Shown piece by piece: positions 21,680-30,737 of a DNA stretch of 64,000 nucleotides; position 1 is the stretch's first letter, and each line of letters starts with the position of its first letter. This stretch comes from a virus (Duplodnaviria; Heunggongvirae; Uroviricota; Caudoviricetes). The stretch lies in IMG/VR virus record IMGVR_UViG_3300035696_000002, one strand, 5' to 3'. The notes below the pieces were generated by a model, which was not told where the DNA came from, made no database searches, and saw only the letters and a list, made by a program, of their open reading frames with translations. The position numbers and the translations under genes are program-made.

Positions 21680-22055
21680 CATTCACGTACACGTCGAAGT
21701 AAAGATCAATGGGAAGTGGCAGCATTACAACCACCCGAGGATCAACCGGAACTACGCACTCTTTAGCCGACTGGCTGGCGTCCGGGGCGAACTGGAACCA
21801 ATCACTAGGCCGAGGGGCATTCCAAAAAACGCAACGTGGATGACAAAATTCGACTTCAAACGCATGGGCACCGACGCCCACACGCCAAGCTGGATTTCAG
21901 GTGAGGAAGTTGAGGCTCTACAGGCCGAGGGCTTCTTGGACAGCTTCAAGGAACTGGGCTACATTTTCGGCAACGGCTTCGGCGTCAAGGGCTATCCCGA
22001 GGATTACCCTGAGGGGGTCGAAGACTCCCGGCTCGTTTTTTGGTTCGATTGCTAA
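21669..22055 (+). CDS. hypothetical phage protein
   Basis: MGCDIH...RNYALFSRLAGVRG...PRGIP...FWFD pattern. Confidence 0.75.
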   Translation: MGCDIHVHVEVKINGKWQHYNHPRINRNYALFSRLAGVRGELEPITRPRGIPKNATWMTKFDFKRMGTDAHTPSWISGEEVEALQAEGFLDSFKELGYIFGNGFGVKGYPEDYPEGVEDSRLVFWFDC

Positions 22056-22064
22056 AAATAGTTG

Positions 22065-22093
22065 TTGCAAGTTTTCGAACTTCCCAGTATTAT
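22065..22093 (+). promoter_or_regulatory. sigma70-like promoter of tRNA array 1
   Basis: TTGCAA-17 nt-TATTAT. Confidence 0.75.
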
Positions 22094-22109
22094 ACTCAGA
22101 GAGATCATT

Positions 22110-22187
22110 ATGAACCGCGTTTCCCTATCACTGTCGCTCTTGTATAGCCTCCTTAGCGGGGTCGGCGGCGGTGTGTTCAACGGGTAA
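22110..22187 (+). CDS. Leu/Ser/Tyr-rich leader peptide (25 aa, not in ORF track)
   Basis: MNRVSLSLSLLYSLLSGVGGGVFNG; GAGAG upstream; embedded in the attenuator. Confidence 0.8.
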   Translation: MNRVSLSLSLLYSLLSGVGGGVFNG

Positions 22188-22242
22188 CGCAATTAAATCC
22201 CGAGAACGAACCAGCCGCCAGAGATGGCGGCTTTTGATTTTT
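22129..22242 (+). promoter_or_regulatory. ribosome-dependent transcription attenuator (1:2, 2:3, 3:4)
   Basis: 1:2 CACTGTCGCT(22129-38)/GGCGGCGGTG(22164-73); 2:3 GGCGG.GGT..GTTC/GAAC..ACC..CCGCC(22204-19); 3:4 AGCCGCCA-GAGA-TGGCGGCT followed by TTTGATTTTT. Confidence 0.8.
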
Positions 22243-22254
22243 GTGGGCGAATTT

Positions 22255-22482
22255 ATGAAAGTAGTCCAGACAGCACTGACGAAAAAGACGGAGACGGGCG
22301 TGGCCCATCTCATCGCTTGGCTCCCGGTCGATCCGCGAGTAAAGCGGGGCAGTGTCATTTCGCTCGATAAGGACGACGGCAATCGCTGGGTAGTCGAGCG
22401 GCAGTACGCGGTGCAGGATTCTGCTGAGATTCAGCGGGGCTGGGGTGTTGACCTCCCGAAATCGCAGCGTACTGAACGATAA
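22255..22482 (+). CDS. hypothetical protein (75 aa), first gene after the attenuator
   Basis: ATG at 22255; ends 6 nt before tRNA-Tyr. Confidence 0.65.
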   Translation: MKVVQTALTKKTETGVAHLIAWLPVDPRVKRGSVISLDKDDGNRWVVERQYAVQDSAEIQRGWGVDLPKSQRTER

Positions 22483-22488
22483 AGTTTT

Positions 22489-22577
22489 GCATGGTTGCGT
22501 GAGCGGCTAAAACGGGCTGGCTGTAACCCAGCTTCCCCTAGCGGGATACGGAGGTTCAAATCCTTCACCATGCACCA
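22489..22577 (+). tRNA. tRNA-Tyr(GTA)
   Basis: GCATGGT/ACCATGC acceptor, GCTGG-CTGTAAC-CCAGC, V-arm, T-loop TTCAAAT, CCA. Confidence 0.95.
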
Positions 22578-22643
22578 GATTTGTTAGGTGGAATTCCTCG
22601 CCTGCCGCTATATGGCAGACCGTAAGAGCCGATTAAAGTTTTT

Positions 22644-22730
22644 GCACAGTTGGGTGAGCGGCTAAGCCATCTGCCTGTAAAGCAGACGCCCCTCGGGGCT
22701 TCGCAGGTTCGAGTCCTGCACTGTGCACCA
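22644..22730 (+). tRNA. tRNA-Tyr(GTA)
   Basis: GCACAGT/ACTGTGC, TCTGC-CTGTAAA-GCAGA, TTCGAGT, CCA. Confidence 0.95.
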
Positions 22731-22757
22731 TTTTATGGATAGGTGTGAACATTGCGA

Positions 22758-22871
22758 AGCCGGGGCCGAGAACCCTGACCTACATCAGGATCGTTGGTTC
22801 TCAGCAGAACGTTGCTACCGAGTTCACATAGTGAGTAGGCAGGTGGTTCCGTGTTTGATGGAGTCCCGGCT
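22758..22871 (+). ncRNA. unassigned structured RNA
   Basis: AGCCGGGG/TCCCGGCT closing stem; inner GAGAACC/GGTTCTC and CCTGA/TCAGG stems. Confidence 0.4.
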
Positions 22872-22892
22872 GAAAGTGATTTTTCACAACGT

Positions 22893-22978
22893 GCGGTTGT
22901 GGTGGAATGGCAGACACGCAAGGTTGAGAGCCTTGTGGGGGCAACTCCGTGGAGGTTCGAGTCCTCTCAGCCGCACCA
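22893..22978 (+). tRNA. tRNA-Leu(GAG)
   Basis: GCGGTTG/CAGCCGC, CAAGG-TTGAGAG-CCTTG, V-arm, CCA. Confidence 0.95.
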
Positions 22979-23102
22979 AGTTCTGGGCATGGTGTAGACA
23001 ATTTCGTGTGCCCTGCGTCTATGCACAATCACAAGTGAAACCATAGCGGCTTTGGGTGGATAGACCTGCCTCCGGCCCACTAGGACGCCGCCGCAAAGTT
23101 TC

Positions 23103-23188
23103 GCGAGCGTGGCGGAATTGGCAGACGCACTGGCCTTAGAAGCCAGCGGTTAACAGCCATGCAGGTTCGATGCCTGTCGCTCGCACCA
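23103..23188 (+). tRNA. tRNA-Leu(TAG)
   Basis: GCGAGCG/CGCTCGC, CTGGC-CTTAGAA-GCCAG, CCA. Confidence 0.95.
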
Positions 23189-23192
23189 ATAT

Positions 23193-23305
23193 TGTTGAAC
23201 TAAAGCTGTGAAACGGCGGCACGCAGAACCCCGTGTGACTGGCGAAAGCTGTGGCAGGCGAGAAACATTACACGCCAAGGCGTTTGAGTAACTGGTCGTT
23301 CAACA
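23193..23305 (+). ncRNA. unassigned structured RNA
   Basis: TGTTGAAC/GTTCAACA closing stem, two GAAA-capped hairpins, CGTGTGA/TTACACG stem. Confidence 0.45.
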
Positions 23306-23309
23306 CAAG

Positions 23310-23453
23310 TTTGAGAGCACGAGTGGGGGAACTGGCATACCCGGAGCAGGCAACTGACTCCACGTCCCCGAATTGACGGGGGCTGCGGTGCAGCGTGGCG
23401 AAGGCAGTGCGGATTCGAGTTCCGCCTCTGGAAGCTGCAACATCGCTCTCAAA
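23310..23453 (+). ncRNA. expanded tRNA-like RNA
   Basis: TTTGAGAGC/GCTCTCAAA stem enclosing a Leu-type D-arm (GGG-GAACTGGCATA-CCC), three hairpins and a T-arm (GCGGA-TTCGAGT-TCCGC). Confidence 0.55.
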
Positions 23454-23463
23454 GTTTTTTGCT

Positions 23464-23553
23464 TCGAAGATGACGGAATGGTAGACGTGGCACCGCAAAA
23501 TGGTTCTGTAGCTATTAAGACGCTACGTGTGGGTTCGAGTCCCACTCTTCGTT
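23464..23553 (+). pseudogene. degenerate tRNA-Leu-like gene
   Basis: Leu-type D-arm, long V-arm and T-arm intact; anticodon stem mismatched, loop GCAAAAT lacks U33, 1:72 mismatch, no CCA. Confidence 0.6.
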
Positions 23554-23623
23554 GCAACGCGATTGATATTTACTGAAACGGCCATATTTACTGTACAGCA
23601 AATATGGCGTTCAGAGTAAATAT

Positions 23624-23709
23624 GCGGATGTGGTGGAACGGCAGACACGCGGGCCTCAGAAGCCCGTCCCCGCAAGGGGGTGAAGGTTCAAATCCTTTCG
23701 TCCGCACCA
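23624..23709 (+). tRNA. tRNA-Leu(CAG)
   Basis: GCGGATG/CGTCCGC, CGGGC-CTCAGAA-GCCCG, CCA. Confidence 0.95.
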
Positions 23710-23715
23710 AGCTTC

Positions 23716-23803
23716 GCCGGGATGGTGGAATGGCAGACACGCAAGGCTCAAACCCTTGTGGGGATTAAACCCCGTGCAGGTTCGAATCCTGTTCCCGGCA
23801 CCA
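23716..23803 (+). tRNA. tRNA-Leu(CAA)
   Basis: GCCGGGA/TCCCGGC, CAAGG-CTCAAAC-CCTTG, CCA. Confidence 0.95.
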
Positions 23804-23861
23804 AAATCACAAACCCAAAAAACTTTCCCCAAACGCTTCAACCCGTGTTACATTGGTAACC

Positions 23862-24062
23862 ATGTGGTTCGGAGAGTTCGACCCTGACGACAAGGGCCTG
23901 TACCAACGAGTCTGCCTCTGGTTGACGGATCAGTACGATCTGTTTTTGATGTTCAAGTACAACTGGAGAAAAGACTTGAAGCTGTGGCTGGCTCAACGTC
24001 GGACGGATCGTGCTCTGAAACGGCTGGATACCAACTATCCTGACTGGCGAAACCGCAAATAA
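23862..24062 (+). CDS. hypothetical protein
   Basis: ATG at 23862 after an extended -10-like TGTTACATT; Trp-rich 66 aa. Confidence 0.6.
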   Translation: MWFGEFDPDDKGLYQRVCLWLTDQYDLFLMFKYNWRKDLKLWLAQRRTDRALKRLDTNYPDWRNRK

Positions 24063-24095
24063 AAATCCTTTGAAAGTCAAGAGTGATTCCTTTTT

Positions 24096-25100
24096 ATGGG
24101 CAAGCGTGATTCCGATTCACCTGAAGTAGCAACTCCGAAAGCCTCGCAAGGCAGTGCGGTTGGCGGCGAAGAACACGAAGCAGAAGCATACGCACATTGG
24201 TCAAAACGGAACGGGCTTTACAGGCCCACAGGCAAGACGATTGATTCGGTGCCCGCAGGCATCTACAGCATCGACAACGACAATCAAGGCTGGTACCTCG
24301 AAAAAATCAAGTTCCCCTCGGACGATCTGCTCCGCCTGCCGGGAATGCCCATCGAGTTCATCCTTGACCAGATTCAGAAGTTCTGGGAACGGGAACATCT
24401 CTTCAAGGCCACGAAGCTCCTCCACAAGCGTGGCATTCTGTTGTACGGCCCGGCTGGATGTGGTAAAACATCCATCATCAAGCTGCTCTGCAATGATCTC
24501 GTCAACCGCGACGGCATCGTCCTCACGATCACAAACTGCCGTCTTGCGGAAAATGCCCTTCAGGGTATTCGTCAGATCGAGCCACGCCGACCGATCCTGA
24601 CCATCATCGAAGACATCGAGACCTACATGGGTTCGTCCGACGATTCCTCGTCCGCACGTGCCCTGCTCGCCTTCCTCGACGGTGAATCGCAGGTGGATCA
24701 CATCGTCCATCTGGCGACGACGAACAAGCCGGAGTTGCTGGAAGATCGCATCATCAAGCGACCGGGCCGTTTCGACCTCGTCGTCGGCTTGAATCAACCT
24801 GTGGCAGATGCTCGCGAAATGTATCTGCGAAACCTGTTGAAAGAGTTGGTCACCGATGAAGAGTACGCCGAGATGGTTGCCGAAACCAAGGGTCTCGGCC
24901 TCGCTCACCTGCGTGAGTTGGTTGTGGCGTCGTACTGCCTCGGCCTCGACCGCAAGGAAACATTGAAGCGTCTGCGGATGAATTACAAGAGCAAGCTCAA
25001 GGTCAAGAATTCACCCGATGGCAATAAGATGGGCTTCAGGGAACCGGACGAGGGTTACACGACCGATTTCCCGATTGACGAACCGAAAGACGACGAGTAG
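24096..25100 (+). CDS. AAA+ ATPase (classical clade, BCS1/FtsH-like)
   Basis: Walker A GPAGCGKT, Walker B IIEDIE, SRH TTNKPELLEDRIIKRPGRFD. Confidence 0.92.
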   Translation: MGKRDSDSPEVATPKASQGSAVGGEEHEAEAYAHWSKRNGLYRPTGKTIDSVPAGIYSIDNDNQGWYLEKIKFPSDDLLRLPGMPIEFILDQIQKFWEREHLFKATKLLHKRGILLYGPAGCGKTSIIKLLCNDLVNRDGIVLTITNCRLAENALQGIRQIEPRRPILTIIEDIETYMGSSDDSSSARALLAFLDGESQVDHIVHLATTNKPELLEDRIIKRPGRFDLVVGLNQPVADAREMYLRNLLKELVTDEEYAEMVAETKGLGLAHLRELVVASYCLGLDRKETLKRLRMNYKSKLKVKNSPDGNKMGFREPDEGYTTDFPIDEPKDDE

Positions 25101-27035: not shown

Positions 27036-27065
27036 TTGACAAAAAGCCCGACTTCCGGGTATCTT
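27036..27065 (+). promoter_or_regulatory. sigma70-like promoter of tRNA array 2
   Basis: TTGACA-18 nt-TATCTT. Confidence 0.7.
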
Positions 27066-27105
27066 ATATGAGTGGGCAGAAGCCCACCAAGGAATTCACC
27101 TTCAA

Positions 27106-27177
27106 ATGAACTTGATGCGACCATTTACGATGTTTCGACCGTGCATGCCTACCATGCGTCGGGAGACGATTCTGTAA
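27106..27177 (+). CDS. Met/Pro/Phe/Arg-rich leader peptide (23 aa, not in ORF track)
   Basis: MNLMRPFTMFRPCMPTMRRETIL; AAGGA 12 nt upstream; alternative in-frame ATG at 27115; 3' end lies in a long hairpin abutting tRNA-Pro. Confidence 0.65.
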   Translation: MNLMRPFTMFRPCMPTMRRETIL

Positions 27178-27208
27178 ATCGTCCGCATCCCGACGCTGCT
27201 AGGCGTAC

Positions 27209-27298
27209 CGGGATGTAGACGGGTAAATGGAAGCCCCCGTGCTTTGGATGCACGTACCCTTAGTGGTCTTGGGAGTTCGAGTCTCCCCATCCCGACCA
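27209..27298 (+). tRNA. atypical tRNA-Pro(TGG) with long variable arm
   Basis: CGGGATG/CATCCCG (C1:G72, A73), CGTGC-TTTGGAT-GCACG, 16-nt variable region, T-arm, CCA; extended TAGAC connector. Confidence 0.8.
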
Positions 27299-27322
27299 AA
27301 TTTTTTAGATTCAACGATTTAA

Positions 27323-27415
27323 CGGTGTGTAGAACGGTAACTTGGTAGCCGTCCAGCTTCGGATGCTGGTGCCCGAATAGTGGCCCTGTAGGTTCGAATC
27401 CTATCACGCCGACCA
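27323..27415 (+). tRNA. atypical tRNA-Pro(CGG) with long variable arm
   Basis: CGGTGTG/CACGCCG, CCAGC-TTCGGAT-GCTGG, 18-nt variable region, T-arm, CCA; TAGA connector. Confidence 0.8.
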
Positions 27416-27830
27416 TTGGAGTGTTCGCACGGAGAGTGGCCAACAGCCTGAACACGTGACCCGAAAAGCGGGGCAACCCGGATACGGGCATAAAGCTCTC
27501 CAACGAAATGATGCGGGGTTCGCCGGACGTACCCGGCGACGCAAGCGGGTGGTTACATCCGGCCCCCTAGCGAGTCAGTGGTGGAGCGGTCGCTCTTGGT
27601 CGCCGGGTGTCCGGCTGAGTGGCCGTGCTTAAGTGCCGAGGAGTGGTTGACCGACCGACACCGGATACCGCTCGACAGGTCGCCCGTAATTTGCTGAGGT
27701 AGATGCTTTGTGGTCATGCTGCCTGAGGAGCCCCGATTGCCATGGCAATCGGCAAGCACAAGGGGTGCCCCTGACAAAAGCGTCGGATGGAAGATCAGCC
27801 GCCATCGTGGCCATGAGGCTGGAAATTTTA
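27416..27830 (+). ncRNA. candidate large structured RNA (about 410 nt)
   Basis: No credible + strand ORF; multiple long-range stems; 20-bp perfect palindrome; bounded by tRNAs. Confidence 0.45.
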
Positions 27831-27831
27831 A

Positions 27832-27906
27832 CGGCGTGTAGCTCAGAGGAAGAGTTCTCGTCTGGGGGACGAGGGGTCGGGATTTCGAAATTCCCCACGC
27901 CGACCA
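27832..27906 (+). tRNA. tRNA-Pro(GGG)
   Basis: CGGCGTG/CACGCCG, CTCGT-CTGGGGG-ACGAG, CCA; T-arm deviant (GGGAT-TTCGAAA-TTCCC). Confidence 0.85.
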
Positions 27907-27910
27907 TTTT

Positions 27911-28129
27911 ATGGAGAACGCATTACAACTCGCGGACTGGTTCCACATTCGATGCTCAAGCAAAAAGAGTGGACATCCGGTGTTCGTGGCAGCCTTGAAG
28001 CAGTGGCAATGCACACGCTGCAAGTCAGCATGGAACTGTGATGAAGACCAGTTTCTCGTGTATCTCCAGCGTACTGTTTTTGAGGTTCGAAAAGATGAAG
28101 ATGATCCGCTGGTTCCGGGGCCTGTTTAG
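27911..28129 (+). CDS. small Cys-containing hypothetical protein
   Basis: 72 aa with CTRC...C, inside the tRNA array. Confidence 0.45.
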   Translation: MENALQLADWFHIRCSSKKSGHPVFVAALKQWQCTRCKSAWNCDEDQFLVYLQRTVFEVRKDEDDPLVPGPV

Positions 28130-28161
28130 CAAATATCGGCCCGTAGGGAAATTTTAAGTTT

Positions 28162-28238
28162 CAGGATGTAGCTCAGCTTGGTAGAGTCCTCGCCTCGGAT
28201 GCGAGTGGTCGCAGGTTCAAATCCTGCCATCCTGACCA
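28162..28238 (+). tRNA. tRNA-Pro(CGG), canonical
   Basis: CAGGATG/CATCCTG, CTCGC-CTCGGAT-GCGAG, CCA. Confidence 0.95.
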
Positions 28239-28249
28239 AGACCGAAGAA

Positions 28250-28309
28250 GGCGTATGAATGCTGGGGCGGTGTGGCCACACGTGAGTTCAATGCTCACTT
28301 CATACGCCA
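28250..28309 (+). ncRNA. mini tRNA-like RNA (acceptor-like stem plus T-arm only)
   Basis: GGCGTATGAA/TTCATACGCC 10 bp stacked on GTGAG-TTCAATG-CTCAC. Confidence 0.55.
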
Positions 28310-28323
28310 TCGGAATTTCGCAG

Positions 28324-28396
28324 GTGACTGTAGCTCAGGGGTAGAGCACCGGGGTTGGCCCGGAGTGCGGCGGTTCGAGTCCGTCCAGCCAGACCA
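28324..28396 (+). pseudogene. degenerate tRNA-Pro(TGG)-like gene with 5-nt anticodon loop
   Basis: D-arm, T-arm and CCA intact; CCGGG-GTTGG-CCCGG; two acceptor mismatches. Confidence 0.6.
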
Positions 28397-28507
28397 TGTG
28401 ACGAGGGGAACGATAGACCGGGCAGCAGGCATGCTCTCCGGGAACATCGTGAAATCCGTGATGCCTCCCTGCGATAGTTTTTTGATTTTGTGAGTATTAG
28501 ATAGATG

Positions 28508-28580
28508 TCACGCCGGACTCGGGGTAGACCAACGGCTCCCGACTCTGCTGTTTCCGTTGGGCAGGGAACCTCCGGCGTGA
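28508..28580 (+). ncRNA. three-way-junction RNA with complementary loops
   Basis: TCACGCCGGA/TCCGGCGTGA; two inner hairpins with loop segments CCAACGG and CCGTTGG. Confidence 0.6.
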
Positions 28581-28584
28581 TTTT

Positions 28585-28661
28585 GCCAGCGTAGCATAGT
28601 GGCCTAGTGCAGTCGCCTCATAAGCGAAAGATCGGTGGTTCGAATCCACCCGCTGGTACCA
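28585..28661 (+). tRNA. tRNA(CAT), elongator Met or Ile2
   Basis: GCCAGCG/CGCTGGT, GTCGC-CTCATAA-GCGAA, CCA. Confidence 0.9.
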
Positions 28662-28940
28662 ATTCTGTGATAGGATGGAACCGATGAAGCCGCTTCCAAT
28701 TGATCCGCCGAAACCGACAAAAAGGCACCCGAAATTTCCGTGGTAATCGAAGTTCCAGATTGTGCCAACTGTGGTGGGCCGTGCGAATGCGACGGCGAAG
28801 GTTTTAGAATTTGCTCCCGGTGTGGTTTCTTGGGAGATTGTTTGCACTGCGAATTCAACGAGGAGGATGAACGAATGGCTACTAACCCTAGCAAGACCGC
28901 ACATACCGCATAAGGTGTGAGCGGTCGGGGAGCGAAAGCC

Positions 28941-29231
28941 ATGTCTCATCCTACGTCGCGTGCCGAACGTCGGCACCAACGTGATCGTGTTATTGCCCGC
29001 CGCCGAAAGGTTGCGGAAACTGAGTGGGGCTACAACAACGGCGACTGGATCGCACGCGGTTGGGAACCATTCGTAAACTGGGGCGTATACGCCAAGTGGA
29101 ACGGTGGGTGCGGTTCATCCATGTGTCACGCGGCGAAGTACTTCAAGATCGCCCACAAACGCCGAGAGGCCCTGCACAATTCAGAATCGCAGGCGGAATT
29201 TCGGCGACGCAATAAAGTTGCATATCACTGA
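28941..29231 (+). CDS. basic hypothetical protein
   Basis: SD GGGGAG; SRAERRHQRDR...; 96 aa. Confidence 0.65.
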   Translation: MSHPTSRAERRHQRDRVIARRRKVAETEWGYNNGDWIARGWEPFVNWGVYAKWNGGCGSSMCHAAKYFKIAHKRREALHNSESQAEFRRRNKVAYH

Positions 29232-29354
29232 TCTTTCAGTATTATTTATAGGGCCTAAGATGGCCCGAGATATTGCAAGGCCGCAGGGTAGCAGCGTATC
29301 GGGAAGTCACAGCCAAGATTGCATCGGTTAAGTGCCCGCCCTGCGGAGTAAGTT

Positions 29355-29547
29355 TTTAGCCCAGTGGCCCGTGATTCAACTGGTTCTGTGTCGGAGTAAT
29401 GTGAGCCGACGCCATCCCCAGTATAAAAAACGCAGCAGCGGGGGGCAGGTACCGTAAGGCCTGCTGGAGGCATTCACGCAAAGGTGCTCGTCAACCTGTG
29501 ATCGCCGTATCGGGATACGCAGCATAACCGGAATGTGCTGGGCTAAA
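29355..29547 (+). ncRNA. unassigned multibranch RNA (about 190 nt)
   Basis: TTTAGCCCAGT/GCTGGGCTAAA 11-bp closing stem with several internal hairpins; flanked by AAGTTT spacers. Confidence 0.55.
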
Positions 29548-29558
29548 GTTTTCAATGA

Positions 29559-29635
<77 letters not shown>

Positions 29636-29640
29636 AGTTT

Positions 29641-29711
29641 GCCGGGGTGGGCTGTTCGCTTTGGCGGGCAGTTTATAAAGCTGTGGGGGTCAGCCCAGCG
29701 GTCACTCCGGC
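29641..29711 (+). ncRNA. tRNA-sized structured RNA without T-loop
   Basis: GCCGGGGTG/CACTCCGGC, GGGCTG/CAGCCC and two inner hairpins. Confidence 0.45.
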
Positions 29712-29718
29712 TACGATT

Positions 29719-29800
29719 TGCGGGCGAGTGGATGGGATACATAGACCATACAACGCTCATAACGTTGTGATTGCGGGTTCGACTCCCGCGTCCGCACCCA
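29719..29800 (+). tRNA. atypical tRNA(CAT) with C73 and 14-nt D-loop
   Basis: TGCGGGC/GTCCGCA, discriminator C, CCA; CAACG-CTCATAA-CGTTG; GCGGG-TTCGACT-CCCGC. Confidence 0.75.
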
Positions 29801-30076
29801 TTTCGGCCCTAGCTAGGTACGTGCCCGGAGCGGCAATTGATGCCAGCCTCAGGAGAATTACAGTCGTTTATCAATCGGCAGGGCCGAACGAGTGGTAGAT
29901 TCGTGTGAGACGGTGAGCTAGGCACCCTGTACGTTGGGGGTATACAGTGCCGGGTTGGGTTCGATTCCCAACTGCGATAGACGAGCAACGCGAGTCCAGT
30001 TAGGCGATCACGGGTAAAACTGCCTCGATAAGAGCGGAAGTCGGGTTACACAAACTCCCACTCGTGATCGGCCTAA

Positions 30077-30580
30077 CACCTAGATGTTGCCGCGTAATAG
30101 CGGCTGTGATGAGCAAGTCCCGACAAGGTCTCGACTTTGTGTCTGAGCGGAGTTGAGAAAAGCGGGAGCCGCGAAAGCGTTGAACTTGTGGAGTCACTTC
30201 TCAGACCGCTTTTTGAAAGATTGCAGCGGCAGGGTTGGCTAGTACGGAGAAGGCGTTCCCGCTCGCGGTCACACGCGATCAAAAGGTACGCGATACACCT
30301 TCTTCGCTCCCGTCATCCGGGAAAAGGCTAAGGCGTGGTGATTTCCCACGCACGTCGGTATGGAACGCCCTGTGGTAAGAGGAACCTTCTCCTCGGAAAA
30401 GGCAAGGATGATTCGCCGCTGCATATTTCTCGGGTCACTCCGAGTGGGGTGAGCGTCACCCAGTTTCCTGCATCTGTAAAATGTAGGTGGTGCGTCGCAA
30501 ACGAGCGGAAAACTATGAACTGCATTAGCTACAATCTCGACCTGTTTACCAGCCGCGAAAGCGGCCTGTAATACGTGTGT
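30077..30580 (+). ncRNA. candidate large ornate RNA (about 500 nt)
   Basis: Pseudoknot, long-range 8-9 bp stems, GAAA tetraloops, no credible ORF; directly upstream of tRNA-Phe. Confidence 0.55.
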
Positions 30581-30582
30581 TC

Positions 30583-30658
30583 GGGGGTGTAGCTGATGTG
30601 GTCTTAGCGGCGGCTTGAAAACCCGCAGATGGGAGTTCGATTCTCCCCGCCCCCACCA
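30583..30658 (+). tRNA. tRNA-Phe(GAA)
   Basis: GGGGGTG/CGCCCCC, GCGGC-TTGAAAA-CCCGC (one C:C mismatch), CCA. Confidence 0.88.
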
Positions 30659-30661
30659 TTT

Positions 30662-30737
30662 GGTGGGGTAGCTCCAATGGTAGAGCGGGGGCCTGAAAAG
30701 CCCCGCGTTGCGGGTTCGAGTCCCGCCCCCACCACCA
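30662..30737 (+). tRNA. tRNA-Phe(GAA)
   Basis: GGTGGGG/CCCCACC, GGGGC-CTGAAAA-GCCCC, CCA. Confidence 0.95.

Follow-up and report, generated by a model that had tools for sequence, protein, structure and literature searches.

What controls the tRNA gene arrays of giant bacteriophages? Why phages carry tRNAs, and how large sets of them are controlled, has been debated for decades, and the usual view is that control of tRNA genes acts at their promoters and through processing. The question is raised anew by a Leu/Tyr tRNA array at positions 22065-23803 of a 64,000-nucleotide (nt) stretch of DNA, here called the window, from the IMG/VR virus record IMGVR_UViG_3300035696_000002. The window is part of one 463,033-bp contig which carries 68 tRNA genes and a transfer-messenger RNA (tmRNA) gene and belongs to a giant soil phage (~463 kb) of soil or peat Acidobacteriota. 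The array is headed by a promoter, a short open reading frame (ORF) and an intrinsic terminator, and this unit is probably a ribosome-mediated (leader-peptide) transcription attenuator which gates six genes for tRNA-Tyr (two) and tRNA-Leu (four), together with a small protein gene (p75) and an aberrant tRNA-like gene. By itself the unit is no more than moderately unusual, and the case rests on its paralogues and orthologues. The attenuator architecture and the match between leader codons and tRNAs, which a preliminary description had read from this locus, are supported by five sister cassettes in the same genome, by leaders that co-vary with their arrays and by ten related records that carry the system: the 455,708-bp IMG/VR contig G001 (six homologous cassettes), the cultured Tunturiibacter jumbo phage Tunturi_5 (three cassettes, unannotated in PP885688.1) and eight metagenome contigs (L020, L022 and L025-L030).

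The unit begins with a promoter on the plus strand (22065-22093) composed of TTGCAA (22065-70), a 17-nt spacer and TATTAT (22088-93), with the -10 hexamer falling within a phage-typical CCAGTATTA word. On consensus score alone this promoter is not above chance. A TTGACA-N17-GTATTAT-like block is also located upstream of the other cassettes of this genome and of those of G001, L020 and L022, and the interval between terminator and array contains no other consensus promoter. The leader ORF (22110-22187, plus strand) lies immediately downstream, its ATG at 22110 being 17 nt past the -10 hexamer, and consists of 25 codons that encode MNRVSLSLSLLYSLLSGVGGGVFNG and end in TAA at 22185-87. Codons 5-16 (22122-22157, plus strand) form a control block of Ser, Leu and Tyr only, which reads S L S L S L L Y S L L S. 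Leu is encoded by CTA, CTG, CTC, TTG, CTC and CTT, with TTA absent, and Tyr by TAT; every Leu isoacceptor of the array thereby has a codon in the block (CTA, CTG, TTG and CTC/CTT), in addition to TAT. ARAGORN and Rfam, used to call the tRNA genes, both place on the plus strand two tRNA-Tyr(GTA) genes (22489-22577 and 22644-22730) and the genes for tRNA-Leu(GAG) (22893-22978), tRNA-Leu(TAG) (23103-23188), tRNA-Leu(CAG) (23624-23709) and tRNA-Leu(CAA) (23716-23803), and all seven Leu/Tyr codons of the leader are readable by tRNAs of this array. The promoter, the ORF with its uniform block and the correspondence of its codons with four tRNA-Leu and two tRNA-Tyr had each been reported in the preliminary description, and all are recovered here. 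That description mentions neither p75, nor the aberrant tRNA-like gene, nor the sister cassettes. Leu, Tyr and Ser together account for 12/24 leader residues in this unit alone (P=3e-4), and when the seven leaders of the E type, as the Leu/Tyr units are termed, are pooled, the enrichment in Leu and Tyr reaches P=1e-9.

The leader RNA is predicted to adopt mutually exclusive folds. Region 1 (22129-22138) pairs with 22164-22173 in a helix of 10 bp, three of them G-U, which would act as an anti-antiterminator. Region 2 (22164-22184), which is made up of the last seven sense codons of the leader (GGC GGC GGT GTG TTC AAC GGG), can pair with region 1 or, alternatively, with region 3 (22199-22219), which comprises the spacer and the 5' arm of the terminator; the 2:3 antiterminator is an 18-pair hairpin with the leader stop codon at its apex. 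The intrinsic terminator (22213-22242, like the three regions on the plus strand) has an 8-bp stem with six G-C pairs and a 4-nt loop (22213-32), followed by TTTTGATTTTT. Folding of the alternative states places helix 1:2 and the 3:4 terminator in the minimum free energy (MFE) fold of the full-length leader, and helix 2:3 becomes the MFE fold when region 4 is omitted. The helix at 22129-38/22164-73 and the terminator with its U-tract thus stand as they were first described, and the antiterminator exists as an alternative fold, although its extent (22164-84/22199-22219) is greater than had been stated. Masking of the RNA by a ribosome footprint leaves helix 2:3 intact with the A site at codons 2-16 and destroys it from codon 17 to the stop, which means that the switch point coincides with the end of the control block.

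The same design is found in 20 of 21 units, in which the last ~20 nt of the ORF form an imperfect hairpin of 14-21 pairs with the spacer and the terminator 5' arm, the midpoint of the hairpin lies no more than 10 nt from the leader stop codon, and the distance from stop to terminator is 21-36 nt. A shuffled-ORF control covered the first 15 of these units, of which 14 pass against 4.2 expected, and the pairing gain over dinucleotide shuffles gives a Stouffer z of -5.0 for the same 15 units. In the three Tunturi_5 cassettes the U tracts are located at about L001:3290, L010:2385 and L011:2280. The sequences vary and the design is kept: the inner helix is CGGG/CCCG here, UGGG/CCCA in L029 and UCGG/CCGA in L022. 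Helices were compared by per-sequence folds; MAFFT misaligned the spacer and terminator arms of the E-type units, and column-wise covariation was abandoned. An equivalent terminator is present in 21 of 23 units, the two without a scored one being cassette F of this genome and its counterpart in G001.

It is proposed that RNA polymerase starts at ~22100 and that a ribosome loads on the 25-codon leader. If decoding of codons 5-16, for Leu and Tyr (and Ser), is fast, the ribosome would advance onto region 2 and the stop codon at the 2:3 apex and block helix 2:3, whereupon the 3:4 terminator would fold and transcription end near 22240. When any sampled codon is read slowly, whether from scarcity, lack of charging or damage of its aminoacyl-tRNA, the ribosome would stall upstream of 22164, region 2 would pair with region 3, the terminator would be pre-empted and the tRNA genes would be transcribed. 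Since the products of the array would speed the decoding of the leader, the circuit would act as negative feedback and adjust the supply of phage tRNAs to decoding demand, isoacceptor by isoacceptor. What the analysis shows is the sequence features, the alternative folds and the match of leaders to arrays within and between genomes; leader translation, termination and stall-dependent read-through we infer. That the trigger is cleavage of tRNAs by host defences is speculation and one possibility among several. A search for a phage multisubunit RNA polymerase with the Pfam core domains found no match, which is weak evidence, as divergent phage polymerases can escape such models.

In this genome, six cassettes of promoter, short ORF and hairpin are located upstream of six tRNA arrays. 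Cassette A (L013:223-303) has a Ser-rich leader with one TTA and precedes four tRNA-Ser genes and tRNA-Leu(TAA). The leader of cassette B (L014:243-341) is composed of K/H/N/R/Q/W and precedes an array for Trp, His, Arg, Asn, Gln, Cys and Lys; cassette C (L015:2527-2432, minus strand) combines a T/Q/I leader with an Ile, Thr and Gln array; and cassette D (L016:257-388) an A/V/G/C/E/D leader with an array for Val, Gly, Ala, Asp, Cys and Glu. Cassette F lies in the window (27036-27177, plus strand), with a promoter at 27036-27065 and a 23-codon leader at 27106-27177 rich in Pro, Met and Phe, ahead of a Pro/Gln/Met/Phe array at 27209-30737. Every leader was scored against every array by a binomial test on the proteome background, followed by permutations. 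Each leader over-represents the amino acids that its own array serves, and the true assignment of leaders to arrays ranks 1 of 720 permutations in this genome, 1 of 720 in G001 and 1 of 6 in Tunturi_5. Nearly every own-set leader codon is readable by a tRNA of the array, and in this genome the synonymous codon diversity of the leaders is higher than codon usage would predict (P=6e-4). Among 82 terminator-like sites scanned across the genome, a promoter and a short ORF accompany the terminator essentially only where a tRNA array follows.

The relatives show that leaders change with their arrays. Cys codons are confined to the two L/Y/S leaders whose arrays include tRNA-Cys, those of Tunturi_5 and L027. 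In L020, where tRNA-Ile and tRNA-Phe have joined the Trp/His/Arg array, Ile and Phe are found in the leader as well, and the two mixed arrays of Tunturi_5 have correspondingly mixed leaders. TTA, which makes up 3% of Leu codons, is used in 5/6 leaders whose arrays hold tRNA-Leu(TAA) and in 0/5 of those without it (Fisher P=0.013). CTA, with the same share of Leu codons (3%), is present in 10/10 in-frame L/Y leaders tabulated, the frame-shifted L025 not being among them. Co-variation between codons and tRNAs in related phages, which the preliminary description had put forward as a check, is hence seen for Cys, TTA and Ile/Phe. Loss of the leader codons and helices in homologues that keep the tRNAs, which it had named as evidence to the contrary, is not seen: of 11 Leu/Tyr units on ten relatives' loci (contig fragments L021 and L023 excluded), none has the tRNAs without the codons or without the helices, L025 having its stop codon out of frame. 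Orthologous leader ORFs are found in seven units, those of G001, L022, L025, L026, L028, L029 and L030. A DNA search of GenBank phages gave tRNA-sized matches only and no close relative, and scans of IMG/VR with a 343-aa neighbouring protein, the conserved leader-tail pattern and p75 found G001 alone.

These comparisons bear on a sceptical explanation in which the short ORF is incidental and untranslated: the unit would be a small non-coding RNA or just a promoter with a leaky terminator, and its codons would owe their pattern to chance or to RNA structure. An untranslated ORF would not account for 17 leaders in five genome sets that mirror their own arrays, nor for the co-variation of Cys, TTA, Ile and Phe with the tRNAs, and the geometry of start and stop is fixed, with the stop at the hairpin apex in 20/21 units, in cassettes that occur only at tRNA arrays. 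What speaks for such an explanation is that a 25-codon ORF easily arises by chance, that Shine-Dalgarno signals are weak and the statistics of this unit modest, and that for this unit 38% of ORF shuffles still yield an acceptable hairpin. On balance we regard it as highly improbable.

Alternatively, the ORF might be translated and act in another manner, through nascent-peptide arrest as in the SecM, TnaC and Erm leaders, as a hydrophobic micro-peptide, or in a unit that senses tRNA directly like a T-box. The leader peptide is indeed hydrophobic, and its N-terminal MNRV and C-terminal GGGVFNG are conserved among close relatives. However, this conserved C-terminus coincides with RNA region 2, and between cassettes the peptides are wholly different save for their array-matched composition. 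The conservation of synonymous choices (CTA, TTA) points to decoding rather than to the peptide, and neither the T-box nor another such Rfam family matches at E<=1. We hold an action of this kind to be as improbable as an untranslated ORF.

A stronger competitor retains the attenuator hardware and changes its purpose: the main target would be p75, perhaps with the genes up to 27017, or the unit would report amino-acid starvation, and the tRNAs would be passengers. The conserved 75-aa ORF p75 (22255-22482, plus strand) lies inside the gated operon, between the terminator and the first tRNA, and is the first gene past the terminator in this genome. In G001, L022, L026, L028, L029 and L030, on the other hand, tRNA-Tyr directly follows the terminator and p75 is located deeper in the array, and in cassettes A, B and D the tRNAs begin within 10-25 nt downstream. 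No clear terminator follows the array, and p69, an AAA ATPase and a NADAR gene could be co-transcribed; leader composition nevertheless follows the tRNA content down to single isoacceptors and not the protein content of the operon. A stalled ribosome is unable to distinguish a missing amino acid from a missing tRNA. Considering both sides, we judge passenger tRNAs unlikely, and prefer the reading of the unit as an attenuator of its tRNA genes. The 36 homologues of p75 are all hypothetical proteins; p75 always lies inside Leu/Tyr tRNA arrays and has no match in Pfam or PHROG annotation. It adjoins ORFs like tyrosyl-tRNA synthetase (TyrRS; PF00579, TyrRSs_C, S4) in the loci of three relatives (L025:6576-7016, L026:6252-6620 and L030:7361-8569) and may be a factor related to tRNA-Tyr or TyrRS.

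Several points weigh against control of the tRNAs by attenuation. The support is computational throughout, and for this unit alone it is modest: Leu and Tyr account for 7/24 leader residues (P=0.013) and the antiterminator has a z-score of -1.8. The leader has a 5' untranslated region of ~10 nt and lacks a strong Shine-Dalgarno sequence. A 1:2 state comparable to that described here is the MFE fold in 6/8 E-type relatives and not in the other two, and helix 1:2 is not evident in cassettes B and D, which limits its generality. Cassette F has no U-tract terminator, and not every unit can therefore work alike; it may work differently. The codon diversity of the leaders is not significant in G001 or Tunturi_5, and Tunturi_5 has tRNA-Leu(TAA) in its array and no TTA in the leader. 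In L025 (5670-5800) a 1-nt insertion shifts the conserved TAA of the orthologous Leu/Tyr leader out of frame, and the frame stays open through the terminator; the RNA helices are unaffected, and the insertion is either an assembly error or a natural variant. No leader cassette was found upstream of a seventh array (L017). The homologous units are related and not independent samples, and the P values overstate their independence. A phage nucleus that separates transcription from translation would, if present, break the coupling.

A further objection, raised as a caveat in the preliminary description, is that the leader has five Ser codons and the array behind it no tRNA-Ser, none being found in the array spacers even with introns allowed. 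The mismatch stands and is largely explained by relatives in which the three amino acids share an array. A single L/S/Y leader heads a joint array of Leu, Tyr and Ser tRNAs, the three classes with a long variable arm, in each of Tunturi_5, L020 and L027. This genome and G001 have their Ser tRNAs and tRNA-Leu(TAA) behind a separate paralogous leader, here that of cassette A, which shares the MNR start and has a tail in common with the Leu/Tyr leader of G001. The joint array of these relatives makes it probable that the Ser codons are ancestral. Ser is enriched in all seven Leu/Tyr leaders without Ser tRNAs (pooled P=6e-6), and this persistence may represent a relic or cross-sensing.

Unmatched codons of this kind are also found elsewhere, with Thr in the Val/Gly/Ala leader and Arg in the Ile/Thr/Gln leader, as Ser in the Leu/Tyr leader. 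A tentative and rather doubtful extension is that the six leaders jointly monitor decoding capacity as one distributed sensor, which resolves single isoacceptors, has deliberate cross-talk, and would detect the selective loss of host tRNAs and induce exactly the arrays that replace them. If this were the case, the loss sensed could come from anticodon nucleases or from the phage's own host shut-off, and the sorting of phage tRNA genes into amino-acid blocks would be a consequence of control. Attenuation of each array by its own leader would, if true, account for such sorting in huge phages. It would mean that phage tRNA supply is tuned to actual decoding speed, codon by codon, would extend classical attenuation to a new class of target and would provide synthetic biology with a "codon speed sensor" of natural origin and modular design. 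Cultures exist of both Tunturi_5 and its host, Tunturiibacter psychrotolerans X4BP1 (PMC11924767), and the idea is thus directly testable there.

Some further features of the arrays and cassettes deserve description. The aberrant gene with a long variable arm (23464-23553, plus strand) is called as Phe(AAA) by ARAGORN and scores 31.4 bits in Rfam; its anticodon loop is GCAAAAT (C33, 'AAA'), it is without a CCA end and it resembles the Leu tRNAs, and it could be a pseudogene or an unusual decoder. The spacers at 22731-22892, 22979-23102 and 23189-23463 (120-275 nt) contain no tRNA, no Rfam match and no convincing ORF. The word AAAGTTT is present in 16 copies in the window, where 7.2 would be expected; five copies (22481, 22635, 23095, 23451 and 29545) lie 1-8 nt before the 5' end of a tRNA that follows a spacer, and the word may be a processing signal. 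In the operon of cassette B, a 204-aa ORF (L014:527-1141, plus strand) matches only the histidyl-tRNA synthetase (HisRS)/class II core (PF13393, E=8e-21) and sits between tRNA-Trp and two tRNA-His genes; leader B has both His codons. The spacers of cassettes C and D (L015 and L016; also L005) have in common the word GAAATCAGAGACTTCCG, partly kept in cassette D of G001, which is the 3' strand of the C and D antiterminators. Cassette F (27036-27205) has a long hairpin across the stop codon at its end, and the G001 orthologue of its leader has Thr or Val in place of Met or Phe. The seventh array (G000:C1:238600-243400, minus strand) is composed of three CUA (amber-reading) tRNAs, tRNA-Lys(TTT) and two tRNAs with odd anticodon loops, and a permuted tmRNA gene is located near it (genome positions 242851-243196).

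How does the unit compare with known systems? The leu leader (leuL) and trpL, hisL, pheL and thrL (Rfam RF00512-RF00514, RF00506) are enterobacterial attenuators that each respond to a single amino acid. Like them, the phage unit has a short ORF behind a promoter, a run of regulatory codons, mutually exclusive 2:3 and 3:4 helices, in this unit also a predicted 1:2 helix, and an intrinsic terminator, and the position of the ribosome would decide the fold. Unlike them, it would regulate tRNAs, the very molecules sensed, rather than biosynthetic enzymes, and its leader samples one codon per isoacceptor where leuL-type leaders repeat one codon. Its stop codon lies at the antiterminator apex, its setting is a phage, and it belongs to no matching sequence family: an Rfam cmscan of 21900-24100 at E<=1 gave no match to the enterobacterial leader families (Leu_leader RF00512, His, Thr and Trp), only tRNAs and three weak unrelated matches. 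Multivalent attenuators, such as those of ilvGMEDA (Ile/Leu/Val), thr (Thr/Ile) and ilvBN (Val/Leu), are closer in that a shortage of any amino acid of a mixed-codon leader leads to read-through. The mixture is Leu/Tyr/Ser here and reaches up to about nine amino acids in other cassettes; in contrast to the multivalent attenuators it mirrors the tRNAs of the array and shifts when these move, and almost every amino acid is represented when the cassettes of a single genome are taken together.

In the pheST attenuator (pheM leader) and in T-box riboswitches, both of which control aminoacyl-tRNA synthetase genes, expression of translation genes likewise depends on how the cognate tRNA fares, and the operon of cassette B includes the short HisRS-like ORF. 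However, pheM gates a synthetase and the phage unit would gate tRNA genes, while a T-box binds uncharged tRNA directly and does not need the ribosome; the T-box covariance model (RF00230) gave no match in the same region at the same cut-off. To our knowledge, all described leader-peptide attenuators regulate enzymes of amino-acid biosynthesis or a synthetase, and the genes that would be regulated here, tRNAs and a 75-aa ORF, are unlike these. A possible precedent, a Phe-rich leader for the E. coli tRNA-Phe gene pheV, is not seen upstream of pheV in MG1655, and this lead was dropped. A full-text literature search found no paper describing leader-peptide control of tRNA genes, in agreement with the preliminary description, to whose author no described attenuator of a phage tRNA operon was known, and the Tunturi paper only counts the tRNAs, of which there are 43. 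Phage tRNAs are able to replace host tRNAs cut by defence nucleases (PMC10264068; PARIS, PMC11464382), which offers a possible physiological reason for inducing them when decoding fails; these two papers concern tRNA sequence and escape from nucleases and, as far as they were searched, mention no regulatory leader. The mechanism of attenuation is a known one, and what would be new is its target, the tRNA genes.

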